Assembly (NCBI RefSeq): GCF_048403405.1
Contig: NZ_CP183129.1
Length of the DNA: 64,000 nt
Source: Escherichia coli
GTDB taxonomy: Bacteria > Pseudomonadota > Gammaproteobacteria > Enterobacterales > Enterobacteriaceae
Direction: 5' to 3' (one strand)
In this document: one piece after another, positions 1 through 32,296 of the stretch
Layout of the letters: the number at the start of each line of letters is the position of its first letter
How positions within the stretch are numbered: position 1 is the stretch's first letter
Translations under genes and position numbers: made by a program
The notes under the pieces: model-generated
Seen by the model: the letters and a program-made list of their open reading frames with translations, nothing else
Told to the model about the DNA's origin: nothing
The model's database searches: none

Positions 1-174
1 GAGCGTGAAGCCTTCGCACAGGAAGCCGGAACGACGAGTCACTATATCCAGACTCACTTAACAGGTAAGCGCAAAATGCCAGGTAAGGTATTGATGGATG
101 GGCTTTTTAAAGCCTGTAAAACAAGACAATGGCTGCGCTCAAAAGCAGAACTGGCATACTTCTTCTACTCATGA
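1..174 (+). CDS. C-terminal fragment of a phage DNA-binding regulatory protein (CII-like?), 5' end outside window
   Basis: Frame 1 is open from position 1 to TGA at 172-174 (...GKRKMPGKVLMDGLFKACKTRQWLRSKAELAYFFYS); a terminator follows. Confidence 0.3.
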   Translation, partial: EREAFAQEAGTTSHYIQTHLTGKRKMPGKVLMDGLFKACKTRQWLRSKAELAYFFYS

Positions 175-2609: not shown

Positions 2610-3239
2610 ATGGTAAAGATGGAAAGTAATATCAAAGGGTTAGTTGCCGCCGGGCATGAGATGGCTTCGGAACTGAAAGCTGAATGTGGTGCCGTTGATA
2701 TGCGTAGTGTGGCAAAGCTGCTCAGCGATTTGGCAACGCAACTGGAAGTGCAACTGGTGCGTGCTAATGCGCTGGCCGAAGACCAACAGAGAGCGATTGA
2801 GTCAATTAAGCAGGCTGATTCGGCTGTTAAGTTGGCACACAAGAAGTTTTCGGAGCTGGCAGCGGAGAATGCGGCACTGAAGGCTGCGCACCCTCAACCA
2901 TTCGGACCTGAGATGATGAAGGCTCTTGATGCGTATGAGAAGTATCAGGATGAAGTGCCGGAGACTGGGATGCTCAATGCATTTTTCATCTTGCGCGACA
3001 GTATCCGTGTTGACACCCCAGCCACCGATGCTTTCCTGGCTGAAGTGCGGGCGCAGGGCGTGGATGCTGCTATAGAAGCTGCAAAAAATCTGGTGGCCCA
3101 AGAATATGAGTATAAGGATTTCAAAGCGGCGCAGAGTGATTGCTGTATGCACCCTGGTTCAGATCTGGTAGGGAAGGTTGAAATGACTGAGTGGTTAGTT
3201 GACTTTGCTGCCCAGCTTCGCAAAGGAGGCAACCAGTGA
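2610..3239 (+). CDS. Hypothetical phage protein (alpha-helical/coiled-coil)
   Basis: 209-aa ORF in the early operon, no overlap conflicts, no recognisable family. Confidence 0.45.
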   Translation: MVKMESNIKGLVAAGHEMASELKAECGAVDMRSVAKLLSDLATQLEVQLVRANALAEDQQRAIESIKQADSAVKLAHKKFSELAAENAALKAAHPQPFGPEMMKALDAYEKYQDEVPETGMLNAFFILRDSIRVDTPATDAFLAEVRAQGVDAAIEAAKNLVAQEYEYKDFKAAQSDCCMHPGSDLVGKVEMTEWLVDFAAQLRKGGNQ

Positions 3240-4981: not shown

Positions 4982-5265
4982 TGGTCTCCTTCGCGAAATA
5001 TACGATTATTGACTGGATAGCATTCATTCAGGTTTTGCTCATCTGGTTTTATATGGCTTACAGGAGTGGACAGTGGATTGTCAGTGTAGCCTGTAGCAAT
5101 GGATGGCGTTGGTGGAACCGAAAGAATAAAAAAGCGCTGGCCTTGGCTTCGTTTTACGAAGCATTCAATCTTAACAGTCTTCAGCCTGGTTCTGTCGTTG
5201 TAGTCACCACTCAAAGCGGCATGACGATACAAATTCACAAGCCAAAGGAGGAAGGTCGTGGCTAA
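4978..5265 (+). CDS. Small hydrophobic hypothetical protein
   Basis: 95-aa ORF translationally coupled to its neighbours (ATGA overlap); Trp/aromatic-rich. Confidence 0.35.
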   Translation: MMVSFAKYTIIDWIAFIQVLLIWFYMAYRSGQWIVSVACSNGWRWWNRKNKKALALASFYEAFNLNSLQPGSVVVVTTQSGMTIQIHKPKEEGRG

Positions 5266-5539
5266 CCTGCAACTTGCCGTTAAAGGTGAATACTTCGATG
5301 CCATGATTCGCGGGGAGAAAACGGAAGAGTATCGCCTGTGTAATGACTACTGGAATAAGCGAATTATGTTCCGCGAGTATGACCGCCTGATTATCACAAA
5401 GGGATATCAGAAGCGCGACGATTCCAGCCGCAGAATTGACGTCCCGTATGACGGATATGAAATCAAGACAATCACACATCCGCACTTCGGCGATAAACCG
5501 GTAAAGGTGTTCGCTATAAAGGTGAATATTGATGGCTAA
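5258..5539 (+). CDS. Hypothetical protein (ASCH/PUA-like?)
   Basis: 93-aa ORF with RBS AAGGAGG upstream; family assignment is a weak recollection. Confidence 0.35.
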   Translation: MANLQLAVKGEYFDAMIRGEKTEEYRLCNDYWNKRIMFREYDRLIITKGYQKRDDSSRRIDVPYDGYEIKTITHPHFGDKPVKVFAIKVNIDG

Positions 5540-5870
5540 ATCAGCAGCAGAGCGCAAAGCCGCGCAGCGCGCTCGGCAGTCCGCCGCCGGTGAGCGCAAA
5601 ATTGAACTGGTGCTGGATAAGCAGGAGCAGGAAATGCTGGCGCGGAACTGCGCCGCCCGGCGCCCTGGTCACGATCCCTATGAAATGGCCGAGTACATCG
5701 CGCTGCTGATCCGCCAGGATGATGCACGTGTGCGCGGGCGTATAAAATCGATCAGTAGAAAACGTTGCGGTAAGTGCGGCGAGAGAGTTCCAGTTAATTC
5801 ATGTCCGTGTAATGGTGACTCGCAATGCTGGGTGACTAAAGGCTGGCATGAAACGAAATTAATAGTGTGA
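5529..5870 (+). CDS. Hypothetical protein with C-terminal Cys cluster (CGKCGERVPVNSCPC)
   Basis: 113-aa ORF, last gene before a terminator hairpin. Confidence 0.4.
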   Translation: MMAKSAAERKAAQRARQSAAGERKIELVLDKQEQEMLARNCAARRPGHDPYEMAEYIALLIRQDDARVRGRIKSISRKRCGKCGERVPVNSCPCNGDSQCWVTKGWHETKLIV

Positions 5871-5919
5871 CATGTCACGAGTAGATTATGCATGATGAAT
5901 TTGATGGGTTTTGAATACT

Positions 5920-5945
5920 GCCGCCAACTATGGCGGCTTTATTTT
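5920..5945 (+). terminator. Rho-independent terminator closing the early gene block
   Basis: Hairpin GCCGCC-AACTAT-GGCGGC followed by TTTATTTT. Confidence 0.5.
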
Positions 5946-5952
5946 GCATGGT

Positions 5953-5981
5953 ACTATTACCACAACGGTAACTATTACCAC
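5953..5981 (+). repeat. Direct repeat ACTATTACCAC x2 (18-bp period) upstream of the terminase small subunit gene
   Basis: Two exact 11-mers at 5953-5963 and 5971-5981 between the terminator and the terS start. Confidence 0.5.
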
Positions 5982-5988
5982 GGTGGTT

Positions 5989-6585
5989 ATGATGCCTGCT
6001 GAACCTAAAACCTATAAACGCAAATCAACGCAATTTAAGCCGCTCACAGCAATGCAGGAGGCTTATTGCCAGTCATACATCAAAACGCCTGAAAACCAGA
6101 CTCAGGCAGCGATTAACGCAGGATTCTCCCCAAATACAGCGGCAGTTAAAGCCAGTGTCATGATGCGCGATGAACGCATTCAAAAACGGATTGCCGAGTT
6201 GATGGAGGAGCGCAACAAACGAATGCGCGTCAGTGCTGATTACGTTCTCATGCGCCTGGTGGAGATCGACCAGATGGACGTGATCGATATCCTCAACGAC
6301 GATGGGAGCCTTAAACCAATCCGCGAGTGGCCGAAAATCTGGCGCACTACGCTTAGTGGCTTTGATCTGTCATCGACCATCATGAACATGAACGAGGATT
6401 CGATAGAGACAATCCTCAAAAAAATTAAATGGCCTGACAAGGTGAAGAACCTCGAACTGATTGGTAAGCACGTCGACGTCAACGCATTCAAAGAACGCCT
6501 GGATGTTAATGTGAATGTGACAATTGCTGATCGCATAGCGGCAGCCAGGAAGCGACTCAAAGAACGTCAGGATGGTAATCAGTGA
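5989..6585 (+). CDS. Terminase small subunit
   Basis: Placed directly upstream of and overlapping the large terminase; helical DNA-binding-type N-terminus; ATG pair at 5989/5992 after GGTGG (upstream in-frame Thr-rich extension from 5911 judged non-coding). Confidence 0.55.
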   Translation: MMPAEPKTYKRKSTQFKPLTAMQEAYCQSYIKTPENQTQAAINAGFSPNTAAVKASVMMRDERIQKRIAELMEERNKRMRVSADYVLMRLVEIDQMDVIDILNDDGSLKPIREWPKIWRTTLSGFDLSSTIMNMNEDSIETILKKIKWPDKVKNLELIGKHVDVNAFKERLDVNVNVTIADRIAAARKRLKERQDGNQ

Positions 6586-8057
6586 CAGATACAGCGTTAT
6601 CTCCTGAAGAGCAGTTGATCGAGGATATTGCAGGGTTTACTCACGATCCGCTTGGTTATGCCCTCTATGCGTTCCCGTGGGGGGAAGAGGGTACTGAACT
6701 GGCACATGCTACCGGCCCACGTCAGTGGCAGGCTGATGCGTTCCGAGAGATACGTGATCACCTGCAGAATCCAGAGACGCGCTATCAGCCGCTTATGCTG
6801 GCACGCGCTTCTGGTCACGGTATTGGTAAATCCGCATTCATCTCAATGCTGATCAACTGGGGCATGTCCACTTGCGAGGATTGTAAGGTCGTGGTGACCG
6901 CCAACACCGACAACCAGCTACGAACGAAGACCTGGCCGGAAATTATCAAGTGGTCAAACCTTGCTATCACGAAAGACTGGTTTACCTGTACCGCTACCGC
7001 GATGTACAGCAATGACCCTGGGCACGACAAGCGGTGGCGCGCTGACGCAATCCCCTGGTCTGAGCACAACACTGAGGCGTTCGCGGGACTACACAACGAG
7101 CGCAAACGCATCATCGTGGTGTTTGATGAAGCGTCGAACATTGCGGATCTGGTGTGGGAAGTTGCCGAGGGTGCGCTTACGGACGAAGACACCGAAATCA
7201 TCTGGGTGGCGTTCGGGAACCCGACGCGTAACACCGGGCGTTTCCGTGAGTGTTTCCGCAAGTACAAACACCGCTGGAAGTGTGCGCAGATTGACAGCCG
7301 GACGGTGGAAGGCACCAACAAACAGCAGTTGCAGAAATGGGTTGATGACTACGGGGAAGACAGCGACTTCGTTAAAATCCGTGTGCGCGGCATATTCCCT
7401 GATGCATCTGAATTGCAGTTTATTCCTACCGGTCTTACTGACGAGGCAATGAAACGGGTGGTAACTGCTGCGCAGGTGGCACATGCTCCGGTGATAATCG
7501 GCGTTGACCCTGCATACTCCGGTGTTGATGACGCGGTGATATACCTGCGGCAGGGGCTGCACAGTAAGGTGCTGTGGACCGGCAACAAGACCATTGACGA
7601 TCTGATTATGGCAAAGCGTATCGCTGACTTTGAAGACCAGTATCAGGCTGACGCGGTGTTCATCGACTTCGGTTACGGAACCGGTTTGAAGTCAATCGGT
7701 GACGGCTGGGGTCGTACATGGCAACTTGTTCCGTTCGGCGGTGCGTCCACTGACCCGCAGATGCTTAACAAGCGTGGGGAGATGTTCAACTCATGTAAGA
7801 CATGGCTGAGGCTGGGCGGCATGCTGGATGACCAGGAAACAGCAGACGACCTGTCGGCGGCAGAGTACAAAGTTCGTGTGGACGGTAAAATCGTTATCGA
7901 ACCGAAGGAAGATATCAAAGAGCGTCTTGGGCGTTCGCCGGGTAAAGGCGATGCGCTACTGCTGACGTTTGCTTTCCCTGTGTCGAAGCGTCTGCGAATT
8001 CCTGGGCAGCAGAACCAGCAAGGCAAGGCCATCACAGATTATGACCCGTATGCTTAA
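6582..8057 (+). CDS. Terminase large subunit
   Basis: 491 aa with ATPase region (GHGIGKSAF...VVFDEASNI) and C-terminal nuclease-like region, as recalled for large terminases. Confidence 0.85.
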   Translation: MTDTALSPEEQLIEDIAGFTHDPLGYALYAFPWGEEGTELAHATGPRQWQADAFREIRDHLQNPETRYQPLMLARASGHGIGKSAFISMLINWGMSTCEDCKVVVTANTDNQLRTKTWPEIIKWSNLAITKDWFTCTATAMYSNDPGHDKRWRADAIPWSEHNTEAFAGLHNERKRIIVVFDEASNIADLVWEVAEGALTDEDTEIIWVAFGNPTRNTGRFRECFRKYKHRWKCAQIDSRTVEGTNKQQLQKWVDDYGEDSDFVKIRVRGIFPDASELQFIPTGLTDEAMKRVVTAAQVAHAPVIIGVDPAYSGVDDAVIYLRQGLHSKVLWTGNKTIDDLIMAKRIADFEDQYQADAVFIDFGYGTGLKSIGDGWGRTWQLVPFGGASTDPQMLNKRGEMFNSCKTWLRLGGMLDDQETADDLSAAEYKVRVDGKIVIEPKEDIKERLGRSPGKGDALLLTFAFPVSKRLRIPGQQNQQGKAITDYDPYA

Positions 8058-8107
8058 TCCGCTGGTGGGGATAATGTCGTTGATATCCTCTGATGAGGAT
8101 AAAACAA

Positions 8108-8135
8108 AGCCAGCTCATCGGCTGGCTGTTTGTGA
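8108..8135. terminator. Bidirectional terminator hairpin between the large terminase and the minus-strand gene
   Basis: AGCCAGC-TCATC-GGCTGGCT with a T-rich run on the minus strand and GTTTGTG on the plus strand. Confidence 0.4.
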
Positions 8136-8147
8136 CATGTCACGGTG

Positions 8148-8504
8148 TTATTGCTCGCTTAGCTTCTGCTTCAGCAAGTAACCTTCGAGCATCCAGATTT
8201 TGTTTACAGCATTCTGCCGGGCAATCTTCCGACCAATTTCTGCATCAAAGTTTTCCGGGCTTGCACAGGCGCTCTCTCCGGTGACGGTGAAGCCATTCTT
8301 CAGCACCAGTACGCAGAAAGTAAGGAGGTCTGTAGATTTATGCGCTGTCCACGCATCGCCAATGCCCATATTGGCGGCACGAATACCGTCATAAGCAGTA
8401 AAGAAATGCTCTTCAAGAATGATGCTTTCGATATATTGGGGCGTAACTCGCGGTGCCGTTTTGCCTTTCTCAACGATTTCTTTTTCGATTTGCTGGTCGT
8501 TCAT
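8148..8504 (-). CDS. Hypothetical protein encoded opposite to the packaging and head genes (moron-like)
   Basis: 118-aa ORF with RBS AGGTGAG; bracketed by hairpin terminators on both sides. Confidence 0.5.
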   Translation of the reverse strand: MNDQQIEKEIVEKGKTAPRVTPQYIESIILEEHFFTAYDGIRAANMGIGDAWTAHKSTDLLTFCVLVLKNGFTVTGESACASPENFDAEIGRKIARQNAVNKIWMLEGYLLKQKLSEQ

Positions 8505-8511
8505 AATCTCA

Positions 8512-8538
8512 CCTTAAAAAAATGCCCGGCGAACCGGG
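8512..8538 (-). terminator. Putative minus-strand terminator immediately upstream of the RBS of the 8504 gene
   Basis: Hairpin CCCGGTTCGCCGGG followed by TTTTTTT on the minus strand. Confidence 0.4.
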
Positions 8539-8614
8539 AGAACTGGAAGCAATGAGTTATGCCTTCCGTGGCTGTACGGGTTTACAGCATGAAGTCATCG
8601 CAATGGCGTCCTGC

Positions 8615-8659
8615 TGTAAAAAGGGCGGTGATAGTCCTTCAAGGGAAACCATCACCGCC
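8615..8659 (-). terminator. Putative minus-strand terminator downstream of the tRNA
   Basis: 9-bp stem GGCGGTGAT/ATCACCGCC with 18-nt loop, followed on the minus strand by CTTTTTA. Confidence 0.4.
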
Positions 8660-8702
8660 AAGCCCCTGGAACTTCTGGCATCACGGTCCTTAGGCGTGAT
8701 TC

Positions 8703-8779
8703 TGGCGTGGCATGCAGGATTCGAACCTGCGACCAACCGCTTAGAAGGCGGTTGCTCTGTCCAACTGAGCTAATGCCAC
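8703..8779 (-). tRNA. tRNA-Arg (anticodon UCU), phage-encoded
   Basis: 77-nt cloverleaf folded by hand: acceptor GTGGCAT/ATGCCAC, D-arm GCTC-AGTTGGACA-GAGC, anticodon arm ACCGC-CTTCTAA-GCGGT, T-arm GCAGG-TTCGAAT-CCTGC, discriminator G, encoded CCA. Confidence 0.85.
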
Positions 8780-9101
8780 AACGCTGAGAGCACTTAGCCT
8801 GTTAAGGCGCCACACTTTGTCGCGGCTCCATAAATGCTCTCATCGTTGCACCCTCGTCTCTTCCGAGGCGTCACACCGAATCGCCGGGATGGTGAATCCC
8901 CGTGCGCGGAATAAAACCGCTCGACTTGCACATTCCGGCTACCTGGTTCGTTTGCCCGAGCAAGTGAGGGTGCCCCTTAAACGTATCCAGACCGCTATCG
9001 ACGCATGTGCCATACACCGTACTGCTCAAAATAAAAGCTCACCCCACCTGTTCAATTTAACGACAAGCCAGTCAGGTTAATAACCGGAATGAACTCTTTA
9101 C

Positions 9102-9116
9102 TTACCTGAAGGGTAA
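9102..9116. promoter_or_regulatory. Palindrome TTACC-TGAAG-GGTAA (operator-like site 4) upstream of the head-gene operon
   Basis: 15-bp palindrome about 45 nt upstream of TATGTGGTT-N5-GGTAATA and the 9206 start. Confidence 0.45.
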
Positions 9117-9205
9117 TAATTGTGCGTTAAATGTCAACCACCTACGATAAATAAATCATATGTGGTTAAATTGGTAATAATTTAATTGCGTACGGAGTCA
9201 TTGAT

Positions 9206-18422: not shown

Positions 18423-21169
18423 TGCCTGTTGTTCCTACTACATCCGGACGTCAGGTGCAAAGTCGTGGTGTGCAAACCGGTGGTTTTCAGATCTTCGATG
18501 TTCCTCAAGCAGATCAGGTGCTGGCGAATGTCGCAGATCAGTATGCGGTGGCATATGGTGAAGCCAGGCAGAAAGCGAATGTTGCTATGGCCCAGGAGGC
18601 GTTACTGCAATTTAACCAATTTGCAGATGACCAGATTAACAACCCTGAAAGTGGGCTGATTTCTAAACAGGGTAAAAACGCTCTTGGTCAGAGTGACGCT
18701 GTTATGAAAAATATGCAGGAAAGGGCTCAGGCATTATTAGGCTCAATTCCTGAAAGTGAGGAAAGGAATAAATTATCCTTTCAACTCCAGCAGTCTATGC
18801 AGTCTTATTACAATCAGGCACGTCGATATGAAGTTGGGCAGTTTCAGCAATTCCAAGATCAAACGTATTTGTCAGGAAATGCATTGGCTGTCACTCAGTC
18901 TGCGGGGCTATATAGCGATAACCAAGCATTTGTCGATTTAGCCAAGCAGCGATTTGAATCTATTGATCAATACGCTGATGCGCATGGGCTTCCTGATGAG
19001 TGGCGTGTTCAGCAGAAAACTCAGCTCAAGGAACAAATGGGGCAGCAAGCATGGATAGGAAATATCGCTCAAAAATACAACGAGTTTCTTCAGGTTAATG
19101 GAGAGCCAGGGGATCTTGATGGTGTGAGTCGTGCAATATCACATGGTAATTCATTGGATGCTCGTGGTTTACGTAATAATAACCCTGGTAATATTGAAGC
19201 GAGCAAATCTAACCCGTGGGAAGGTCAGATCGGTAGCGATGGACGTTTTGCAACGTTTGCTACCCCTGAGCATGGAATCCGCGCGTTGGGTAAAAATATG
19301 TTGTCTTACCAGCGTCAAGGCTATGACACCGTTAGCGAGATTGTTAATCGCTATGCTCCGGCTAGTGATGGTAATAATACTGATGCTTATATTAGGGCAT
19401 TGTGTGGTGAGCTTGGTGTTGGGGAGAATGATCAGCTTGATATCTCTAACCCAAAGACACTAGCTGCTTTATGTGCTGGGATTATTAAACACGAAAATGG
19501 CAGTATGCCTTATAGCACCGAACAGCTTGAAACTGGTATCTCGGCAGCCCTTGGTCTAACTAACCTTGATTCACCTAAGCGTTATACAGGCAATGCGGCA
19601 TTTGATGCTATGAGCCCTCAAATGCAAATACAGGCATTGAGGCAGGCTAATGAGCTGAGAAATCAGTACCGCCAGCAGTATGCGGACCAGCTTAGCACCG
19701 TAGTTAAAGATGCATATTCAGCCCTTGATGAAGGATTGAAACCTGAGAAGTTACCTTCTGAGGACGATTTTATCCGGGCCAATGGTCCGCGCATTGGCGC
19801 TATGAAGTGGAAGGATATGCAGGCGCAGATACAATATGGAGGTGTCATTGGTGCCGCTAAAGACCTCACTCCAGAAGGACGACAAGACATTCTTGAACGT
19901 TTACGTCCACAGGATCCAAACGCTCCTGGATTTGCAGCTAACCAGCAACGCTGGGAGAAAATGCAGGCCAAATTTAAAGAGATGGATAGGGAGTGGGAGA
20001 TTCAGCAGGGAAGAAACAGGTTCGTGTCTTCAATGCAAAATAACTTCCCGCTGGACCCGAACGACAAAAACAATCAGGCAGCGGTAGACCGTTATTTCGC
20101 GCAGGATATCGCGCCTTCGTTTTCCATATCTGATCCGCAGAGCATCAATACACTGGTCACCGTCACAACTAAAAGCGGCATGATACCAACTCAGGTTAAA
20201 ACAATGCTTAACAGTGGAGCAACATCAAGAGATCCTGCGCTGGTTGTCCCGATGGCAAAATTCTACGGTCAGTTATTCGATAATAATCCGGCGGCAGCGG
20301 CAACACTTGATAAAAGTACGATGGCATTTTACGGCAAGGTTTACGATTATTCCCGCGCTGGCGTGCCGGAGGATAAGGCTGTTGATATGGCTTACAGCCA
20401 GGTGTTCCAACAGGATGACCGAATGAAACAGATGCTTTCCACTGCCATGCGAGACAAAAAATATGTCGCGGCGAGGGCAACTGCTGCACAAAATAACGCC
20501 AGCAGTCTGACTTCCTTTGGTTCGTGGTCTCCGGATATTACCGATCCAGGAAAATCAAATGCGGCCTATCAGCGAGATTACCAGACAATTTACGATGCTA
20601 ACTTTGTACAGACAGGTGGCGATGCAGAACAGGCTGAGAAAATGACCAATGCCATGATCAGAACCACCTGGGGAGTTTCTACGGTTAATGGCAAAGCAGA
20701 GGTTATGAAGTATGCACCTGAGGCATTGTACGGAGTAAATAATGGTGCTGGTAACTGGATACAGGGGCAGTGGGAGCAGGAAAAACGCGAGCTTAAATCA
20801 AAATCCTTTGGCGGTCCTCGCAGTGATACGGACTTAATACTTGTTTCTGATGGCCTTACGGCAAGGGATAGGAGTTATGCTGTTATGGTTTTACAGCCTG
20901 ACGCAAACGGAGCGATAGAACCGAGAAATTATATTGGAGAAAATGGTCTCCCTGTTCGTTTCAAGCCGGATCAGCTGACATCTCCAATGTACAGGCAAAC
21001 CATTAAGTTCCAGCAACAGCGTGTTGATGAGGCTAGAGTGCGGAGAGAAGGCAATCCGCTGCCGCAGTTCAGCAATAAAGATGGATATACTCCTCCAGAT
21101 CTGACCAAACCATTCGGTTATGGTTCAGCCAATTACCTTCCGAGCAATATATACGCAGGGGGCAAATAA
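18422..21169 (+). CDS. Internal virion / ejection protein (T7 gp15-like core protein)
   Basis: 915 aa, in the gp15 position; contains a conserved-looking block NNPGNIEASKSNPWEGQ...HGIRALGKNMLSY. Confidence 0.5.
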   Translation: MPVVPTTSGRQVQSRGVQTGGFQIFDVPQADQVLANVADQYAVAYGEARQKANVAMAQEALLQFNQFADDQINNPESGLISKQGKNALGQSDAVMKNMQERAQALLGSIPESEERNKLSFQLQQSMQSYYNQARRYEVGQFQQFQDQTYLSGNALAVTQSAGLYSDNQAFVDLAKQRFESIDQYADAHGLPDEWRVQQKTQLKEQMGQQAWIGNIAQKYNEFLQVNGEPGDLDGVSRAISHGNSLDARGLRNNNPGNIEASKSNPWEGQIGSDGRFATFATPEHGIRALGKNMLSYQRQGYDTVSEIVNRYAPASDGNNTDAYIRALCGELGVGENDQLDISNPKTLAALCAGIIKHENGSMPYSTEQLETGISAALGLTNLDSPKRYTGNAAFDAMSPQMQIQALRQANELRNQYRQQYADQLSTVVKDAYSALDEGLKPEKLPSEDDFIRANGPRIGAMKWKDMQAQIQYGGVIGAAKDLTPEGRQDILERLRPQDPNAPGFAANQQRWEKMQAKFKEMDREWEIQQGRNRFVSSMQNNFPLDPNDKNNQAAVDRYFAQDIAPSFSISDPQSINTLVTVTTKSGMIPTQVKTMLNSGATSRDPALVVPMAKFYGQLFDNNPAAAATLDKSTMAFYGKVYDYSRAGVPEDKAVDMAYSQVFQQDDRMKQMLSTAMRDKKYVAARATAAQNNASSLTSFGSWSPDITDPGKSNAAYQRDYQTIYDANFVQTGGDAEQAEKMTNAMIRTTWGVSTVNGKAEVMKYAPEALYGVNNGAGNWIQGQWEQEKRELKSKSFGGPRSDTDLILVSDGLTARDRSYAVMVLQPDANGAIEPRNYIGENGLPVRFKPDQLTSPMYRQTIKFQQQRVDEARVRREGNPLPQFSNKDGYTPPDLTKPFGYGSANYLPSNIYAGGK

Positions 21170-24559: not shown

Positions 24560-25411
24560 ATGAAAAAAATAAATTTGTTTTTTGGCATAGTGCTTTCAAT
24601 AGTCTCTGTAAATCCTACAGCTGCCAGTTCATTGCAATGCAATAAGGATAACTTTGATGCATGCAAAACGTGCGAACAATTATCAAAGGCTATCGACTTA
24701 AAAGAACCTAATCGTGGCGATTACTATAGAGGGGCTTTATGGAATGGGCTTTACGCCTCTTATGTAATTAATTGCCCTGTGGTTGCAGAGAAGTTACTGA
24801 GCCATGGTGCTATACCATCATATGGCGGATATATGGGGTCTATGGGGGCGGTTCTGACAGGAAAATGGCCTCATAACAATGAATCAATAAATCTTTCATG
24901 GGCAGATTTGCTTATAAAACATGGATTTGATGTTAATAGGCATACGGGGAATTATAAATCAGCTACTGAAGTATGGGCTATAGATAAAAAACAGATTGAA
25001 TATAAGTCAGTTTTTGACAAGTTAATTCAATCCAGCGAAGTAAAACCACTCGATCCTTCAAGAAATTTAGAATGGTGTGCGTCTGAAGGGTATCGCTCAG
25101 TTGTCGTTTATTCCCTTAACTCATGTATAGAAAATGCTATAAAACGTTTGGATGACGGTGTTTCTTCAGCGTCTGATATTTCATCAGCAGCCGTAAATTC
25201 CTGTACTAGCGATGTAGAAAATTTCAATAAGCATTTGGCATGCAAAGCAGCTGTTAAAGAAAACTCTGATAAAGAGAGAAGCAACGTTTACCAGTTATTA
25301 ACCAGTGATAGTCAAATGAATAAAAATGTTATTGATATGCTGAAGGAAAGAAATATTGAAACGGTTCTTGAATTTAGAGCTGAAAATCGATCAGCGAAAA
25401 CTGCACAGTGA
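24560..25411 (+). CDS. Secreted hypothetical protein with ankyrin-like repeats (moron), AT-rich
   Basis: Signal peptide MKKINLFFGIVLSIVSVNPTAAS; two ankyrin-like segments (...AEKLLSHGAIPS..., ...ADLLIKHGFDVN...); start 1 nt after the gp16-like stop; terminator follows. Confidence 0.55.
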   Translation: MKKINLFFGIVLSIVSVNPTAASSLQCNKDNFDACKTCEQLSKAIDLKEPNRGDYYRGALWNGLYASYVINCPVVAEKLLSHGAIPSYGGYMGSMGAVLTGKWPHNNESINLSWADLLIKHGFDVNRHTGNYKSATEVWAIDKKQIEYKSVFDKLIQSSEVKPLDPSRNLEWCASEGYRSVVVYSLNSCIENAIKRLDDGVSSASDISSAAVNSCTSDVENFNKHLACKAAVKENSDKERSNVYQLLTSDSQMNKNVIDMLKERNIETVLEFRAENRSAKTAQ

Positions 25412-25417
25412 TCAAAC

Positions 25418-25442
25418 AGGCCGCTTTCGCGGCCTTGTTTTT
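25418..25442. terminator. Bidirectional terminator hairpin
   Basis: AGGCCGC-TTTC-GCGGCCT followed by TGTTTTT; hairpin core GGCCGCTTTCGCGGCC is identical to the one at 28670. Confidence 0.55.
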
Positions 25443-25602
25443 AACGAATGCCACCGCCGCCAGGGCGGGAATCCGCAGAACGCCCACCGCAGCGGGAGCC
25501 GTCAGCGGCAGTATCGCTGTCGTGCTGACAACGACCGGCAAAGGCCTGAGTTGAAGCTACCAGAGACAACAAAACGAACAGTGCAGCAAATGCTTTTTTC
25601 AT
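25441..25602 (-). CDS. Small secreted Gly/Cys-containing peptide (53 aa) with its own promoter (moron)
   Basis: Internal start MKKAFAALFVLLSLVASTQAFA gives a clean signal peptide; promoter-like hexamers upstream and terminator downstream. Confidence 0.45.
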   Translation of the reverse strand: MKKAFAALFVLLSLVASTQAFAGRCQHDSDTAADGSRCGGRSADSRPGGGGIR

Positions 25603-25615
25603 TGTGAAATTTCCA

Positions 25616-25643
25616 TCTATAAGCCACCTCAATGTGGCGTCAA
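25616..25643 (-). promoter_or_regulatory. Candidate sigma70 promoter for the small secreted peptide (-35 TTGACG, -10 TATAGA, 16-nt spacer)
   Basis: Minus-strand hexamers at 25638-25643 and 25616-25621. Confidence 0.35.
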
Positions 25644-25672
25644 TGAGTGTAGCACTGACTTTTGTTTCGTCC

Positions 25673-25695
25673 ACAAAAAAGCCCGCAGCGCGGGC
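25673..25695 (-). terminator. Minus-strand rho-independent terminator
   Basis: GCCCGC-AGC-GCGGGC followed on the minus strand by TTTTTT, immediately after the stop at 25696. Confidence 0.5.
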
Positions 25696-25929
25696 TTACT
25701 TTTCTTCAGGTTTGTTGTCTTCAGATTTCTTCTTGATGCTTGGTTTTTGTCTAAGACCGAAAATACCAGCCACTGCAACAACTGTACCGATCACTGTGCC
25801 AGCTAGAACTTCATGACCTGTTAAACCTAATAATGTTGCACAAGCTACTGTAAAAATAGTTGCACTCAGGCCAAACCACTGCCCACGTTTATCTCTATTA
25901 ATAGCCCCGTCAAGTGCCTTTTCCTCCAT
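25696..25929 (-). CDS. Small two-TM membrane protein (possibly the C-terminal part of a frameshifted larger gene)
   Basis: 77 aa with two hydrophobic segments and a Lys-rich tail; the same frame stays open upstream to ~26073. Confidence 0.45.
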   Translation of the reverse strand: MEEKALDGAINRDKRGQWFGLSATIFTVACATLLGLTGHEVLAGTVIGTVVAVAGIFGLRQKPSIKKKSEDNKPEEK

Positions 25930-25958
25930 TTTCTGGCGGTGAGCAAACTCCTTCTCCG

Positions 25959-26243
25959 TCAGCTGGAAGATGCGTTCGGGGGCATCAGGTAAAATATCCT
26001 GATACCCGCGAAGCAGATAGGGGGAGGAAGCGGACCCTGAAACGCATGGTGAGCGACAACTATCTCCTGAATTTCAGGGCGATCAAGAACTCTTGTGAAG
26101 GCATCTGGGTGTTGAATGATCTCGTTACTTAGCCCTTCCTCAACTTCCTCGAACTCAGTTTCTTCGTTATCACTTGGTTGCCCAATAGATTTTTGCATAT
26201 TTGTCGAAGGACATTCCTTTAGCTTCTGGTTTTCCTCTTGCAT
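25959..26243 (-). CDS. Acidic hypothetical protein (possibly the middle part of a frameshifted gene)
   Basis: 94-aa ORF overlapping the upstream ORF by 74 nt in another frame; C-terminus degenerates into Pro-rich sequence near a G5 run at ~26019-26026. Confidence 0.3.
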   Translation of the reverse strand: MQEENQKLKECPSTNMQKSIGQPSDNEETEFEEVEEGLSNEIIQHPDAFTRVLDRPEIQEIVVAHHAFQGPLPPPICFAGIRIFYLMPPNASSS

Positions 26244-26496
26244 TTGAGTTTTTCCCTGTCACTATTGCCCATTTTCCGCCAGCAGGCGCTGCAATTTTTT
26301 TTCCGTTCTTTACTATATATTCAGCATAAACACGATTTTCTGACCGTCTGAGATCGTCTCCGACCATATTCATGTCTCTTGATATAACTTTGACGACAGA
26401 GTCTCGGTTTAAAGCCTTGGCATAGTTGGAGCCAGGAACGATACCCAAAGGGGTGCCAGACTCTATAGCCAGCTCCTTGACATATCTTCTGCTCAT
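26170..26496 (-). CDS. Hypothetical protein, putative DNA-binding/regulatory N-terminal module
   Basis: ATG at 26496 after GAGGT; MSRRYVKELAIESGTPLGIVPGSNYAKALNRDSVVKV... Confidence 0.45.
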   Translation of the reverse strand: MSRRYVKELAIESGTPLGIVPGSNYAKALNRDSVVKVISRDMNMVGDDLRRSENRVYAEYIVKNGKKIAAPAGGKWAIVTGKNSNARGKPEAKGMSFDKYAKIYWATK

Positions 26497-26617
26497 ATGA
26501 ACCTCAACCAATCGACTTTACCAATCGGGTAATTTTAAACATGAGTATAATGCTTTTAACTGCAACGAGTGTAAACAATTATTGATAATTGTAGGCACAT
26601 CCCTGTGCCGCCGCCCG

Positions 26618-27310
26618 TCAGAAGAACCCTGCTTTGTCGTTGATGTACTCCGCGTGCGTCTGGATATCACGCAGGCATTTGCTCACACCGACGATGTAGC
26701 AGAACATGGTGGTCAACTCCGCCGCCGCGCCCGATACGTCGTGCCCGTCTTCCTGTAACTGGTTTAGCAGATTCATCAGCAGTGAGTTCTCCGTCAGGCC
26801 GAGAACACCAGACGGCGAATGAATCAGGCTGCGGTAGCCGGGCTTCAGTGGGGCGCTGTAGGTTTTGTTCTCTACCTTCATTGCCTGCATCACTGCTGAT
26901 GCTGTGGCGTTGGCTACCTGGTCGGCAACCATCTTTATGCGTTCTTCCTGCGGGAGCGAGTTTTTAATGTAACTTCCGGTGCGGCGGATCTGAGGAAGAA
27001 CCTCACCTGTAACCCATTCAAGAAATCTGAATGCTCTCGTTCCCTCAGTCATTGCCTCTTTGCAACGCAGAATAAGGATGTAGAGACCTGATTCTGAAAC
27101 GATGGATAGTTCTTGTATTCCACCAGGGGTCTGTATTGAATACAGCCCCTTTTTGTTCCAGCCTTTTTTATCAAGTTTTCTCGCTTGTGTAACATCAATA
27201 TTCAAAGCATTGCACACATCTTTGGTGACAAACCAAGGTTCTCCGTCAATCATGAACATACGGATCTGGCAGGATGACTCAAAGGAAAAGATGGAAGGTT
27301 TGGTATTCAT
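26618..27310 (-). CDS. Antirepressor (Bro-N domain plus KilA-C/ANT C-terminal domain)
   Basis: Start MNTKPSIF after AAAGGTGA; Bro-N-like N-terminus (FMIDGEPWFVTKDVCNALNI...) and ANT-like C-terminus, as recalled. Confidence 0.7.
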   Translation of the reverse strand: MNTKPSIFSFESSCQIRMFMIDGEPWFVTKDVCNALNIDVTQARKLDKKGWNKKGLYSIQTPGGIQELSIVSESGLYILILRCKEAMTEGTRAFRFLEWVTGEVLPQIRRTGSYIKNSLPQEERIKMVADQVANATASAVMQAMKVENKTYSAPLKPGYRSLIHSPSGVLGLTENSLLMNLLNQLQEDGHDVSGAAAELTTMFCYIVGVSKCLRDIQTHAEYINDKAGFF

Positions 27311-27669
27311 AGCGATCACCTTTGTAGTTAGGTTAATCACCACCGCTGAGACCAATCAGATGGTGGTGAACTGTGCAGAGTTGGTCTTACCGGCTACAAA
27401 GGAACCCGGCGCACCTTTCGGTGCCCCCACACAGCCCACCATAGAATAGGTGCGCTTTACACATAAAAAAACCGCTTATGCGGCATATGTGCCTCTGTAG
27501 TAATCCGGGAGACCAATCCCGGCACTGGATTTTGCCAGTGCCCGATTACTATGGCACAAGAGGAGTGCAATGTAAATTTACCGAAAAGGTAATAATAAAT
27601 GCATAACTCACGTTATTTCAACCCTATATGGTTTGATTTATCCCATTTCAGAAAATACCTGCCTATTTT

Positions 27670-27699
27670 TTTGCCAGTATGCGTATACTTTCGATAGAA
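27670..27699 (+). promoter_or_regulatory. Candidate sigma70 promoter (-35 TTGCCA, 18-nt spacer, -10 TAGAAT) for the 27718 operon
   Basis: Hexamers read directly from the sequence; palindrome site 5 abuts the -10. Confidence 0.4.
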
Positions 27700-27701
27700 T
27701 G

Positions 27702-27716
27702 TTTACCCTAGAGGTA
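27702..27716. promoter_or_regulatory. Palindrome TTACC-CTAGA-GGTAG (operator-like site 5, one arm imperfect)
   Basis: Lies between the -10 hexamer and the start codon, an operator-like position. Confidence 0.4.
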
Positions 27717-27717
27717 G

Positions 27718-28173
27718 TTGGGGGTGCCCGTGAACACGAAGAGAGCTACAGTAATGCAGCATTTGAGGAAATCAGAAAAAAATAAAGACCATGAAATATT
27801 GAGTAAGGCCATTGTTCGGGCTTCCAATAATACTGTTATACCTCATGCTGAAGAGTCTGGACAGAAATTTCTTATTCGGTATTTCACTGAAAATAGTGCA
27901 GTTGAGGAGATTTTAAAACATCAGGGAGGGGAATTTAAATGTGGAAAACTGGCAGATTATGTTCGTCGTGAAACGTCTGAACAAGAAGTATATTATGCTG
28001 ATATTAATCATAAGTCAGGTGTGAAAATTGTAATAGGCTATTACACAACTCCCAAAAATGTTATGCATGAGGTCCCAAAGATGTCCGTCGAGAAATCTCA
28101 TGCAATCTCGCGCAGGATGTTTGCACGCACTGCCGAAGATATGGCTCAGGAGCTCTACGACGATGCTGAATAA
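27718..28173 (+). CDS. Hypothetical protein with acidic C-terminus; candidate antitoxin/immunity partner of the downstream YafO-like gene (ATG alternative at ~27754)
   Basis: 151-aa ORF, AT-rich; its stop overlaps the start of the next gene (ATGCTGAATAA). Confidence 0.45.
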   Translation: MGVPVNTKRATVMQHLRKSEKNKDHEILSKAIVRASNNTVIPHAEESGQKFLIRYFTENSAVEEILKHQGGEFKCGKLADYVRRETSEQEVYYADINHKSGVKIVIGYYTTPKNVMHEVPKMSVEKSHAISRRMFARTAEDMAQELYDDAE

Positions 28174-28477
28174 ATTCCAGGGGTTGGTTCACCCTGGAAT
28201 TTTTGGGAAGGACCCTGAGCTAATACCTATCAAAAACGCGTTCATAGATCACTGGCGCTACGGTCATCATAAGGATTTCGGAAAGGACACTCTGTTTCGG
28301 GATCCACCGAAAGAAATGCTGGAATATCACATACGCCACGTTCACGTAAACATCGGAAACTATACTGACAAGTTTGGTGAGAGCGGTACGGACAATGCTG
28401 GAAAAACTGGGCGTCTGGGAAGAAAGACAAGACCACTAACAAGCATAAAAAGATCCCAACCAGTGACGTGTATGTGA
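28163..28477 (+). CDS. YafO-like toxin, N-terminal part (gene appears frame-split)
   Basis: FGKDTLFRDPPKEMLEYHIRHVHV resembles the recalled YafO motif FGRDALYDD...ERVAHIHL. Confidence 0.4.
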   Translation: MLNKFQGLVHPGIFGKDPELIPIKNAFIDHWRYGHHKDFGKDTLFRDPPKEMLEYHIRHVHVNIGNYTDKFGESGTDNAGKTGRLGRKTRPLTSIKRSQPVTCM

Positions 28478-28668
28478 TTTATCTGGTCACATCTGAACGC
28501 CATGCCTTCCTTCTGGATTATTGGGATGAACCAGCACATAAGACAGTAGAAATTGACGAGCAGAAGCAAAAATTAGTTGTCGAGTGTGACAGAATTTTGC
28601 GGCTGAAAAAGTTAGAATCCATGCCGCGCGATGCTAGTTTGTGGGACCCAGAATTTTACGACTGTTAA
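28468..28668 (+). CDS. YafO-like toxin, C-terminal part in the -1 frame
   Basis: YLVTSERHAFLLDYWDEPAHK resembles recalled YafO HLVYCQGAFDEQAWLLIAILKPEPHK; overlaps the previous ORF by 10 nt. Confidence 0.35.
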   Translation: MYVIYLVTSERHAFLLDYWDEPAHKTVEIDEQKQKLVVECDRILRLKKLESMPRDASLWDPEFYDC

Positions 28669-28669
28669 T

Positions 28670-28692
28670 GGCCGCTTTCGCGGCCTTTAAAT
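28670..28692. terminator. Bidirectional terminator hairpin
   Basis: GGCCGC-TTTC-GCGGCC followed by TTTAAATTT; same hairpin sequence as at 25419-25434. Confidence 0.5.
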
Positions 28693-28950
28693 TTACCGGG
28701 TTTGTTTTCGTAATTGTTCGGCACAATAGTCGAGATGTGTTTGCAGATCCCGCATAGACATCTGTGAGCTGGTGACGTAGTTAATCAGTGCAGTCAGTTC
28801 GGCAAGTGGGCCATCGACATTAAATCCATCCTTATCGAGATCCCGGAGTAATTTCATCAAGTGCGATCCCTCCACCAGTGACCTGACGCCTCCCGGCGTG
28901 TGAATCCTTTCGGTAAATCCGTCTTCCAGTGGATAGTGATACTGCTGCAT
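28693..28950 (-). CDS. Stand-alone KilA-C/ANT C-terminal domain protein (paralog of the antirepressor C-terminus)
   Basis: Internal ATG at 28950 after GGAGAAG; MQQYHYPLEDGFTERIHTPGGVRSLVEGSHLMKLLRDLDKDGFNV... aligns with the C-terminal ~85 aa of the antirepressor at 26618-27310. Confidence 0.6.
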   Translation of the reverse strand: MQQYHYPLEDGFTERIHTPGGVRSLVEGSHLMKLLRDLDKDGFNVDGPLAELTALINYVTSSQMSMRDLQTHLDYCAEQLRKQTR

Positions 28951-29026
28951 CTTATCTTCTCCATGCAATAACTGTATGTTTATACAGTAACAAATAATTT
29001 GTTTGCTATCCAGCACGTTTTGCAAA

Positions 29027-29041
29027 TTACCTGAAAGGTAA
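29027..29041. promoter_or_regulatory. Palindrome TTACC-TGAAA-GGTAA (operator-like site 6) in the divergent region upstream of the tailspike gene
   Basis: Perfect palindrome; followed by ATATCTATTCGTA (also beside site 1) and TATGTGGTT-N5-GGTAATA. Confidence 0.45.
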
Positions 29042-29145
29042 TATCTATTCGTATTTACAGCCTTTCTATCCATATGTGGTTTTTCAGGTAATAGAATAAC
29101 CAGATATGCGGCGCAACGGGTGCTGCGACTATCTGGAGATTTAAC

Positions 29146-31797
29146 ATGACGGTCTCAACCGAAGTTGACCACAACGAATACACTGGTAACGGAGCTACGA
29201 CATCATTTCCGTATACCTTCCGTATTTTCAAAAAATCCGACCTGGTTGTTCAGGTGTCTGACCTGAACGGGAACGTAACAGAATTGGTTCTGGATACTGA
29301 CTACACAGTAACCAATGCTGGAGGATATAATGGCGGTAATGTAATTCTGTCGAAGGCGTTGGCTAACGGTTATCATATTTCTATATCACGAGAGCTCCCG
29401 GTTACGCAGGATACTGATTTGCGTAATCAGGGTAAGTTCTTCGCTGAGGTACATGAAGACGCGTTCGATAAACTGACAATGCTTATTCAAAAGTGTTTTT
29501 CATGGATGAGGTTAGCACTTATAAAACCAAGCATTCTGGCTAACTATTATGATGCAAAAAATAATAAGATATCAAATCTAGCAAATGCCACTGACAGAAA
29601 CGATGCTGTCAATAAAGGTTATGTTGATGATCTTTTTACTGGAGGTGTAACGCCTACACCTAACAGCGTTAAAAACGATATTTTTACAAATCACCAAAGA
29701 AAGATTGTAGCTACGATGCCGCTTCTTTTTCCTGAATATGATGCGATTATGGCTGCTAACCCGTCAGCAACTTATATGTATCCTCAAGGATTCTGCGTTA
29801 GCGAAGATTTGATATACATCACTTATCCATTTGAGCCTAAACAGACGAATAATGTCGTCGCAGTATTTAACATATCTGGTATTTATCAAGGTTATTTCTA
29901 TGTTCAGGCTGGCGGCCCAGGCTTCGCTGCTGAAGGAATCGTGGTTACGTCAGACTATGGCCCCAAAAAAATGTTTGTTGGTCACACAAACGGAATACTG
30001 CGTGAATTTAATATGGAGGGGGCATTATACGGAAGCAATCTGCCTCTTGTACAAAACCATGATGTTGGATTATTCAACCAGTTCAGCTACAGAAGAGGTA
30101 TATGGCTCGTTGAGCAGAATGCGCCAGAAGTAGGACAGAAAATCACAAGAACTGTACTTGCAGTGTTCGACAGTGGTTTCAATCGCCTGTCAACTATAAC
30201 GCTGCCGTTACATGATGTTGGGTATGTAACTAAAAGCACCTCACCTTATGCGCCTTATTTCAACAAGCGTCAGGGTATTGCGGTAGGTGATAACTACTTT
30301 GTCTGCGGCTATGGCGGCTTCATAGCTGATGGGGCAGGAAGCGCAGGATATAACGAATATCAGGGCAGCAAAGTTTTTAACCCTGACGGTACAAAGCGAA
30401 CTGAATCAATGCTTCATCCTCAGGCCATGATGGATTTAATGAAAGCCGCAGGATTGAACGTCACTCGCATAGAAAATGAAGGCGTTTGTGTTTCTCAGGA
30501 TGGAAAATCCATTTATTCACTTTACATTCATCAGGAAAGAACTGGCTCTGAACCTTACAATTCAGGTTTGGTTATTTTCGAAGATTTCTCCACTGATAAA
30601 GATGCTATCGATTTTACACCTGCATCCAGGCTTTACCGCGGATTTGATATCGATCACGCGAGCATTGGGGTATATCCCCGTAGTGCGAAGGGGATTGTTA
30701 ACCCTGTAGATGGTACGTTGTTCACTAACATGACTGAAATTCTTCGCTATATGCAGGAGATGAGTCAGAAGGCATTTAATTTTTACACAGGGACTGTCAG
30801 CATTGCTGATATATCTGGCGTGGCAATCCCTTCCAGCACATATGTTGAAATACTGAATGCGAATAATCAGACTTTTATAGTCAACTATTATTCATCTGAT
30901 AGTGGTATTAGTTATTTGGTTGCAACTAATCCTTCTGGTGACTTTGTATTTGTGCGCCAGCGACCGGCACAGTGGGCATCTAACTTAACCATTCAGCAAA
31001 ACGCAGATCCTGATACAAACCAATTAAACCGCATCACTGCATCATCATATGCCGGTGCAACTACAAACTCTCAGAAAATATTGGTCCTTGACCAGCAGGC
31101 TACAGCTAGCGCAAATAGCTTGGTATTGGGCGGTAGTTCTTCTGTGTTTAGGTCTGCCACCACGGTGGATATTGCATGCAACAGCGACCCGACAGCATTG
31201 GGAGGAACCATACGCTGGCGGTTTTATGATACAGGTCTTCGCCCGTTTGCTGACAATACCTATAATTTTGGTCAGGCATCGTTTCGTATTAAAGACGCCT
31301 ACTTTGCAAATGCCCCAACCGTTTCATCAGATGCCACGCTGAAAACCAATCCCGAGGCAATATCAGATTTAAGTGAAATGCTTTCTTCTGATAGAGACAG
31401 CATTCTTGATGCCTGGGGCGATATTTCTGTTGTGGCGTATCGATGGCTCGACGCTATATCCATGAAGGGCGATGGTGCCAGATGGCATTTTGGCGTCATG
31501 GCTCAGCAGGTAAGGGATGTATTCTTGGCGCACGGAATTGATGGAACCAGATTTGGCCTTCTTTGCTATGACGAGTGGGATGATATTTTTGAGCCGGTAA
31601 TCGCGACTAAAGAGATTACCGATACGTCTGGTGAGTTGGTCACCGTCGAATATGACACCGGAGAACAGAGGCTGGTTAAAAAAGCGGGTAGTTCATGGGG
31701 TATACGGCCTGACCAGTGCGCTTGGCTTGAGGCTGCATATCAGCGCCGTCGATGCGATCGTATTGAAGAGCGACTCGAACTATTGGAATCAAAATAA
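29146..31797 (+). CDS. Tailspike protein with epsilon15/CBA120-type N-terminal particle-binding domain and C-terminal self-cleaving intramolecular chaperone (peptidase S74-like) domain
   Basis: N-terminus MTVSTEVDHNEYTGNGATTSFPYTFRIFKKSDLVVQV as recalled for this tailspike family; C-terminal ~156 aa (from ~31327) with SDATLK, YRW, FGVMAQQV blocks typical of endosialidase-chaperone domains. Confidence 0.8.
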   Translation: MTVSTEVDHNEYTGNGATTSFPYTFRIFKKSDLVVQVSDLNGNVTELVLDTDYTVTNAGGYNGGNVILSKALANGYHISISRELPVTQDTDLRNQGKFFAEVHEDAFDKLTMLIQKCFSWMRLALIKPSILANYYDAKNNKISNLANATDRNDAVNKGYVDDLFTGGVTPTPNSVKNDIFTNHQRKIVATMPLLFPEYDAIMAANPSATYMYPQGFCVSEDLIYITYPFEPKQTNNVVAVFNISGIYQGYFYVQAGGPGFAAEGIVVTSDYGPKKMFVGHTNGILREFNMEGALYGSNLPLVQNHDVGLFNQFSYRRGIWLVEQNAPEVGQKITRTVLAVFDSGFNRLSTITLPLHDVGYVTKSTSPYAPYFNKRQGIAVGDNYFVCGYGGFIADGAGSAGYNEYQGSKVFNPDGTKRTESMLHPQAMMDLMKAAGLNVTRIENEGVCVSQDGKSIYSLYIHQERTGSEPYNSGLVIFEDFSTDKDAIDFTPASRLYRGFDIDHASIGVYPRSAKGIVNPVDGTLFTNMTEILRYMQEMSQKAFNFYTGTVSIADISGVAIPSSTYVEILNANNQTFIVNYYSSDSGISYLVATNPSGDFVFVRQRPAQWASNLTIQQNADPDTNQLNRITASSYAGATTNSQKILVLDQQATASANSLVLGGSSSVFRSATTVDIACNSDPTALGGTIRWRFYDTGLRPFADNTYNFGQASFRIKDAYFANAPTVSSDATLKTNPEAISDLSEMLSSDRDSILDAWGDISVVAYRWLDAISMKGDGARWHFGVMAQQVRDVFLAHGIDGTRFGLLCYDEWDDIFEPVIATKEITDTSGELVTVEYDTGEQRLVKKAGSSWGIRPDQCAWLEAAYQRRRCDRIEERLELLESK

Positions 31798-31828
31798 GAC
31801 CAAATTTAGGTAATTATTATCCGTAAAT

Positions 31829-31885
31829 GGTTTATTGTGTATGATGGACCTCATCTTCTAAGGGGGTTTTTATGCACAATAAACG
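31829..31885 (+). promoter_or_regulatory. Inverted repeat (GGTTTATTGTG ... CACAATAAACG) enclosing two mini-ORFs, between the tailspike and the lysis genes
   Basis: ~11-bp arms separated by ~35 nt containing ATGATGGACCTCATCTTCTAA (MMDLIF-stop) and ATGCACAATAAACGGTGGTTACCATGA (MHNKRWLP-stop). Confidence 0.3.
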
Positions 31886-31894
31886 GTGGTTACC

Positions 31895-32296
31895 ATGAAT
31901 GGCACGGTTACGGCGGATTCACTGAATCAAGGGTTAAGCTTGGGTGCGCTGGCCTCTGTCGTCTACGGCGTTCCGCCAGAGGTGGCTCTCGGTGCTCTGG
32001 CTGGTGCGGTAATATTTGTTACCTCTGCTGTAGAGTATCCTGTTCGTCGTCGTGTACTCTTGTCGATACTCAGCTTTCTTTGTGGTCTTCTCTTTTACAA
32101 ACCAACAACATCAATTCTTATCGGAATAGCCAGCATGATACCTACCATCACGCAGGACTCTTTCGAGAAAGGGATTGTTTTCTCTGCTGGCGCATTCGTG
32201 TCAGCAATTGTCGCAGTGCGAATTGGTATATGGCTCTATCACCGCTCCGATAATCCACGCGACTTAATTCAGGGGAGAAAAGGCGATGGTAACTAA
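31895..32296 (+). CDS. Multi-TM membrane protein (holin or antiholin-like)
   Basis: ATG at 31895 after GGTGG; about four predicted TM segments; directly upstream of the holin and endolysin genes. Confidence 0.45.
   Translation: MNGTVTADSLNQGLSLGALASVVYGVPPEVALGALAGAVIFVTSAVEYPVRRRVLLSILSFLCGLLFYKPTTSILIGIASMIPTITQDSFEKGIVFSAGAFVSAIVAVRIGIWLYHRSDNPRDLIQGRKGDGN

Follow-up and report, generated by a model that had tools for sequence, protein, structure and literature searches.

The window (the whole 64,000-nucleotide stretch of DNA that was analysed) contains the right-hand part, ~34 kb, of a prophage of the phiV10/epsilon15 type (Uetakevirus), which is co-linear with epsilon15 and ends at about 33,820. 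Position 1 of the window corresponds to phiV10 32883, 57 bp inside the cro-like gene. The region 5200-6700 was found to be 94-99% identical to Escherichia phages PAS61, phiV10, TL-2011b, ZX5 and other Uetakevirus members; with Salmonella phages epsilon15 and SPN1S/SPC32H, and with Enterobacter phage Tyrion, the identity was about 80%. The stretch 5860-6060 was present in 501 of 5,426 complete E. coli genomes. The following features were observed or predicted between the end of the early-right block and the terminase genes:

5532-5870, plus strand: last gene of the early-right block, an epsilon15 gp49/phiV10 p55-like 'transcriptional regulator' (from the ORF list)
5920-5945, plus strand: intrinsic terminator of the early-right operon, GCCGCCA-ACTA-TGGCGGC (5920-5937), then TTTATTTT (5938-5945)
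5949-5957, plus strand: predicted extended −10 promoter, TG (5949-5950), n (5951), TACTAT (5952-5957)
5956-5972, no strand: predicted operator A, ATTACC-ACAAC-GGTAAC, one mismatch from the palindrome ATTACC-N5-GGTAAT
5974-5990, no strand: predicted operator B, auxiliary and weaker, ATTACC-ACGGT-GGTTAT, one mismatch, 18 bp from A
5982-5986, plus strand: GGTGG, the Shine-Dalgarno sequence of terS, 5 nt before its ATG (5992), with an invariant GGT at 5982-5984
5992-6585, plus strand: terS, Terminase_2 small subunit, 197 aa (Pfam PF03592, E 1e-29)

The terL gene follows terS. The protein encoded at 5532-5870 matched PHROG 536 ('transcriptional regulator', E 6e-54), has annotated homologues in phiV10 and epsilon15, and combines an RHH-like N-terminus with a Cys-rich C-terminus; no match to it was obtained in Pfam or NCBIfam. 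An Rfam scan returned nothing at 5600-8700, its sole match being the tRNA at 8706-8779. This phage tRNA-Arg (anticodon TCT; 8703-8779, minus strand) lies between a gp49/Sf6-gp66-family gene and the portal operon, and the same tRNA-Arg is annotated in SPC32H and in a Klebsiella relative.

To follow the conservation of the region upstream of terS, 80 IMG/VR loci with identical TerS were combined with four divergent clades, giving 85 sequences and 22 variants of 5915-6000 from Escherichia, Salmonella, Enterobacter and Klebsiella phages. The earlier note on this DNA had read the hairpin and T-run at 5920-5945 as the end of the early block, and the sequence, a terminator scan and the annotation of epsilon15, in which the orthologous hairpin is recorded as a rho-independent terminator, all agree with this. 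The last early gene stops 50 bp before this structure, which consists of a 7-bp stem with six GC pairs and a 4-nt loop (dG −16.4 kcal/mol; z −3.4 versus shuffles). In the 85 homologous sequences the stem was invariant except at 5926, where A or G leads to an A-U or a G.U pair.

All clades retain a 12-bp perfect palindrome, GTGACATGTCAC (5867-5878), over the stop codon of the gp49-like gene. Promoter-like elements coincide with it just upstream of the terminator (region 5859-5903), namely GTGACA-17-TAAATT in epsilon15 (PWM 11.8) and TTAATA-17-TAGATT or GTGACA-18-CATGAT in the window. A putative transcript starting there would stop at the terminator after about 30-50 nt. About 25 of the IMG/VR loci carry a 70-aa ORF between this palindrome and the terminator, and the Klebsiella relative carries an 85-aa ORF there, with a perfect LexA box, TACTGTTTAAATATACAGTA, in front of it; the window retains only a 3' remnant of such an ORF.

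A 224-aa terS product starting at TTG 5911 is called in phiV10 and PAS61 and by PGAP (WP_001090120.1), and its extension reads through the terminator and both predicted operators. ATG 5992 aligns with the starts in epsilon15, SPC32H, Tyrion, TL-2011b and the Klebsiella relative, the last of which has an in-frame stop inside the extension upstream of this codon; ATG 5989 is not conserved and was lost in several variants. The TTG 5911 start is thus almost certainly a start-site error, in agreement with the earlier suggestion that the Thr-rich extension from 5911 is not translated. Correcting this widespread error gives a TerS of 197 aa instead of 224 aa.

The same note had drawn attention to two exact direct repeats upstream of terS, and these were recovered as described: ACTATTACCAC occurs at 5953-5963 and at 5971-5981, 18 bp from start to start. 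No other exact 11-mer is repeated at a spacing of 11-40 bp anywhere in the window. A first-order Markov model gave a mean of 0.49 such repeats per window, and 31% of simulations contained at least one, so that the exact repeat alone is not beyond chance.

A stronger signal, absent from the earlier note, is the inverted symmetry ATTACC-N5-GGTAAT. With at most one mismatch, this palindrome was found eight times in the window versus 0.06 times in simulations (>100-fold enrichment); with at most two mismatches, it was found 18 times versus 1.8 expected. Judging from the sequence, the functional unit is probably a palindromic operator whose left half, ATTACC, is present twice, and not a direct repeat; what was recorded as an exact direct repeat would be a module made of the −10 element and the left half-site (ACTAT-TACC) that occurs twice.

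The comparison of the terS-upstream regions pointed in the same direction. ATTACC at 5956-5961 and GGTAA at 5967-5971 were invariant in the 85 sequences, and four of the five spacer bases (5962-5966) varied, as did 5951, 5972, 5973, 5980 and 5981. Position 5972 is C or T among the variants; a T yields the perfect palindrome, and the window has C (GGTAAC). The exact 11-mer repeat was kept in 62 of the 85 sequences (9 of the 22 variants) and lost in the other 23, and it is absent in epsilon15, SPC32H, Tyrion and the Klebsiella phage. It is thus the palindrome, and not the exact repeat, that is kept in relatives. The left half of site B reads ATTACT in epsilon15, ATTGCT in SPC32H, ATTACC in Tyrion and ATTTTC in the Klebsiella phage. 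Over its full length operator B has one mismatch in the phiV10 clade and two to five in Tyrion, epsilon15, SPC32H and the Klebsiella relative. Because the half-sites of site A are invariant while its spacer and flanks vary, selection acts on the dyad of site A; site B is clade-specific. The Shine-Dalgarno sequence falls within operator B, and a single nucleotide lies between this operator and the start codon. The function of operator B is uncertain, since the ribosome-binding site confounds the reading of its right half, and its conservation may reflect translation signals.

These data also bear on the possibility that the repeats arose by chance or by a neutral local duplication and have no function. 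The simulated frequency of exact 11-mer repeats and the decay of the second copy in other clades are in line with such an origin. However, the half-sites of operator A have remained invariant across four host genera while their neighbours changed, a pattern that largely refutes chance, and the enrichment of the motif likewise argues against it; we give this explanation hardly any weight.

All eight copies with at most one mismatch are intergenic or at gene starts (2132, 2194, 5956, 5974, 9101, 26517, 27577 and 29026). Besides operators A and B, they are the following:

2132-2148 and 2194-2210, no strand: operator pair, 62 bp apart, flanking the promoter TTGATT-17-TTTAAT before a gp43-like gene
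9101-9117, no strand: operator copy before the gp3/portal operon, orthologous to the epsilon15 'repressor' feature 2931..2947
26517-26533, no strand: operator copy with one mismatch in an intergenic gap of the accessory region
27577-27593, no strand: operator copy with one mismatch in the divergent intergenic region 27355-27718
29026-29042, no strand: perfect operator copy before the tailspike gene, orthologous to the epsilon15 'repressor' feature 19895..19911

In seven relatives from four host genera, the palindrome was found both in the immunity region and before other operons. It is syntenic in phiV10, PAS61, Tyrion, epsilon15, SPC32H and a Klebsiella prophage, with 9-12 copies in the relatives, and the shared places are the regions before terS, the gp3/portal operon, the tailspike gene and the lysis cassette, together with the 62-bp-spaced pair before the gp43-type gene. 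In phiV10, PAS61, Tyrion, epsilon15, SPC32H and the Klebsiella relative, OL has two or three palindromes and OR has three, two of which abut; these sites flank the repressor gene. To our knowledge, in all temperate phages studied the motif that makes up the immunity operators is the operator of the repressor. The gp49-like putative 'transcriptional regulator' encoded at 5532-5870 was considered as a binder of the motif and set aside, because the palindrome is the OL/OR operator.

The operator lying 20 bp upstream of terS has a counterpart at the same place in epsilon15, right after the annotated terminator and with the sequence ATTACC-N5-GGTAAT; the portal operon, tailspike, OL and gp43 sites are also shared. 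The epsilon15 orthologue of operator A is the 16-bp feature 'protein_bind, repressor, lysogeny' at 12..27 (NC_004775.2), and all seven 'repressor' features of epsilon15 correspond to ATTACC-N5-GGTAAT, this annotation being itself a prediction. The site upstream of terS is the orthologue of a control element already predicted in the epsilon15 record. It differs from the epsilon15 site in its last base (C, GGTAAC) and in its tandem copy, which is nearly intact in the phiV10 clade and has two mismatches in epsilon15. The site upstream of terS is not annotated in the phiV10 and PAS61 records. The epsilon15 genome was reportedly described by Kropinski et al. in 2007.

The repeats had also been proposed as part of a packaging site. 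In such a case, TerS would recognise the ATTACC repeats beside its own gene and the first headful cut would be made nearby. The position directly upstream of terS would suit this role, TerS belongs to the Terminase_2 family, which is found in pac-type phages, and the GenBank records of several relatives start at most ~75 bp upstream of the site or just past the terminator. The start of the phiV10 record, however, merely follows the stop codon of gene 55, and the pac sites of P22, Sf6 and P1 lie inside the terS gene, which counts against this proposal. The recognition sites of terminases next to terS, such as lambda cosB R1-R3 (bound by gpNu1) and the pac sites of P1, P22 and SPP1, resemble the present site in that short repeats lie in or beside the small-terminase gene. 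They differ from it in that the motif studied here is multi-copy, identical to the immunity operators and conserved with dyad symmetry. A pac or cos signal is expected to be unique, at a single locus, whereas the palindrome occurs at least eight times in the prophage and is found at OL and OR in relatives; moreover, conservation tracks the palindrome half-sites and not the direct repeat. A search of the accessible literature for the packaging termini of Uetakevirus phages returned nothing useful. A packaging function of the repeats is therefore highly improbable, the palindrome being multi-copy and identical to the immunity operators.

The most plausible ligand of the palindrome is the phage repressor, Rep. 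The Rep protein of phiV10 (p40) is homologous to the crystallised repressor of SPC32H (PDB 5D50, E 4e-42). One secondary source describes SPC32H Rep as a tetramer in which pairs of DNA-binding domains bind palindromic sites (PMC9638917), and a second states that it tightly represses the lytic genes and has a tetramerisation domain of the looping type (PMC9986798). In the close relative ZX5, overexpression of the repressor reduced holin and endolysin transcripts by more than 99.9%; the paper contains no operator data (PMC9782041).

The Rep locus lies beyond the left edge of the window; in all relatives for which 7 kb or more of upstream sequence was present, a Rep 98-100% identical to that of phiV10 is encoded. 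More than 60 IMG/VR loci with enough upstream DNA, as well as seven phages from four host genera, have the same Rep type with the same palindrome, and no different type of repressor was found among them. Two IMG/VR loci had no match to Rep: L033, a prophage that is truncated or composite and has a lambda-J-like tail gene upstream, was uninformative, and L072 contains the palindromes and has homology to phiV10. SPC32H belongs to the same genus, with palindromes at the same places and a homologous Rep; it differs from the present case in that the Rep gene is outside the window here. The binding of palindrome pairs by a Rep tetramer fits the tandem and the 62-bp-spaced operators. The lysis/lysogeny switch of SPC32H, formed by Rep and Ant, is said to have been described by Kim & Ryu in 2013 and by Kim et al. 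in 2016 (structures 5D50/5D4Z).

Operator pairs with a promoter in between (PL and gp43-type) are spaced by exactly 62 bp from centre to centre at 2132-2210 in the window, at 31952-32030 in phiV10 and at 32554-32632 in epsilon15, and operators abut at 17 bp at OR and at 18 bp at terS. Both spacings are suggestive of a Rep tetramer that bridges two dyads.

We then examined how the operators are placed relative to transcription signals. No canonical −35/−10 pair was found between the terminator and terS. TTGCAT-17-GGTAAC was considered as a promoter and rejected, since its hexamer lacks an A at position 2 and positions 5946, 5948 and 5972 are variable. The extended −10 element at 5949-5957 was better conserved: T5949, G5950, T5952, A5953, T5955, A5956 and T5957 were invariant in the 22 variants, the only change within the hexamer (C to T at 5954) was towards the consensus, and the 'n' at 5951 (G, T or A) was the most variable position. 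All five clades have TG where an extended −10 element requires it (−15/−14). A −35 element is missing from this predicted promoter, whose PWM score is modest (5.9), and transcription is predicted to start near 5964. With this start, operator A would extend from about −8 to +9 and operator B from about +11 to +27.

The same register is found at other promoters. At PL of six phages, TTGAC(A/T)-17-(A/G)ATTAT (PWM 11.4-12.7), the last two bases of the promoter are the first two of the operator, and both the gp43-type promoter (TTGATT-17-TTTAAT) and the TACTAT of terS share this register with the operator. The layout of operator and promoter at terS thus has, as predicted from the sequence, a repression geometry.

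The earlier note had raised the possibility of a late-promoter activator site. The part of this proposal that places a regulatory site before the first late (terminase) operon is supported. The same palindrome, however, forms the immunity operators (OL/OR), and the epsilon15 record labels it as a repressor site; this points to a repressor and not to a late activator. In a wider form of the activator proposal, a Cro-like protein or Rep itself would activate the late promoters, including that of terS, through the palindrome. This would account for the missing −35 element, but an extended −10 element can make up for such a loss without an activator. Further support comes from the tailspike and lysis regions, where about 71 bp separate the centre of the operator from the predicted start downstream of it, as is typical of class I activators, and where a second conserved motif, CATAT(G/A)TGGTT, is shared. 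At terS, however, the dyad overlaps the −10/+1 region in the register of PL, which differs from activator-dependent late promoters of the P2 Ogr, Mu C and P1 Lpa type, in which a good −10 is preceded by an activator site that lies further upstream than the −35 or takes its place, and the CATATGTGGTT motif is missing. The strong decrease of holin and endolysin transcripts in ZX5 also speaks against positive control. Taken together, activation through the palindrome at terS is unlikely.

We therefore favour, with a probability of about 0.72, that 5956-5990 contains a pair of Rep operators, predicted from the sequence, on the terS-terL promoter and behind an insulating terminator. According to this model, the early-right operon would end at the intrinsic terminator 5920-5945, and the extended −10 promoter 5949-5957, within 4 bp of the T-run, would drive terS-terL. 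In a lysogen, Rep (the homologue of SPC32H Rep and epsilon15 gp38) would bind operators A and B and block RNA polymerase, and the terminator upstream would stop read-through. The terminase operon would be silent in the lysogen because both routes of transcription are closed, the promoter by Rep and read-through by the terminator. Once an antirepressor removes Rep, the terS promoter would fire.

The predicted operators would account for the silence of the DNA-packaging genes in a prophage that is very common in E. coli. They also lead to concrete predictions, namely a transcription start at about 5964 and a Rep footprint at 5956-5990, for a phage group with a known repressor structure and a barely characterised regulon. 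The practical value lies in annotation and in testing of the Rep regulon, and no new kind of biology is implied.

The P1 C1 operators and the 'stoperators' bound by gp71 of mycobacteriophage L5 are systems in which one repressor acts at many scattered sites, including those of late or structural operons, so that silencing does not rely on early promoters alone. The palindromes described here, as predicted dispersed sites of a master repressor that include positions before late operons, resemble them. The proteins of those systems are unrelated to Rep, their binding sites lack symmetry, and stoperators work on polymerase that is already elongating, whereas the site at terS is a palindrome that overlaps the core of a predicted promoter.

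The position of the operator is different at other late operons. Before the tailspike and lysis operons, about 70 bp separate it from the best promoter-like element further downstream, and likewise before the portal operon, where the promoter is less clear. Since this is not a classical position for repression, the palindrome may play a role at the late operons that goes beyond steric repression. It could be imagined that every 'late' operon is wired directly to the lysogeny switch by the palindrome, with no lambda-Q-like step, although we regard such an extension as rather doubtful. If true, a Rep tetramer or a Cro-like protein would act about 70 bp upstream by looping or by co-activation with an unknown late factor at the portal, tailspike and lysis operons.

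The second, undescribed motif, in the form CATAT(G/A)TGGTT(T/A) and always on the plus strand, was found at 2179-2190, 9157-9168, 27623-27634 and 29071-29082, and in a degenerate form near 31822. It is located 45-56 nt downstream of the start of an operator and precedes the gp43-like gene, the portal operon, an accessory gene, the tailspike gene and, in its degenerate form, the lysis cassette. Five matches with at most one mismatch were counted versus 0.87 expected, and the motif is kept in all relatives. It is followed by −10-like hexamers (TAGAAT, TATGAT) and is absent at terS. The motif may mark activator-dependent late promoters, in which case the operator would be near −71.

The operator of the lysis cassette, present in phiV10, Tyrion, epsilon15 and SPC32H, was missing from 31740-31860 in the window. 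The tailspike gene ends at 31797 and the lysis cassette comes next, with only the downstream, promoter-like part of the region (…AAATGGTTTATTGTGTATGATGG).

Finally, the accessory region 25400-29100, between the virion genes and the tailspike gene, is unlike that of phiV10 and contains extra ORFs. It includes a Bro-N antirepressor-like gene with only 80% identity to that of phiV10, and three more operator-like sites were detected in it, at 26517, 27577 and 27702.
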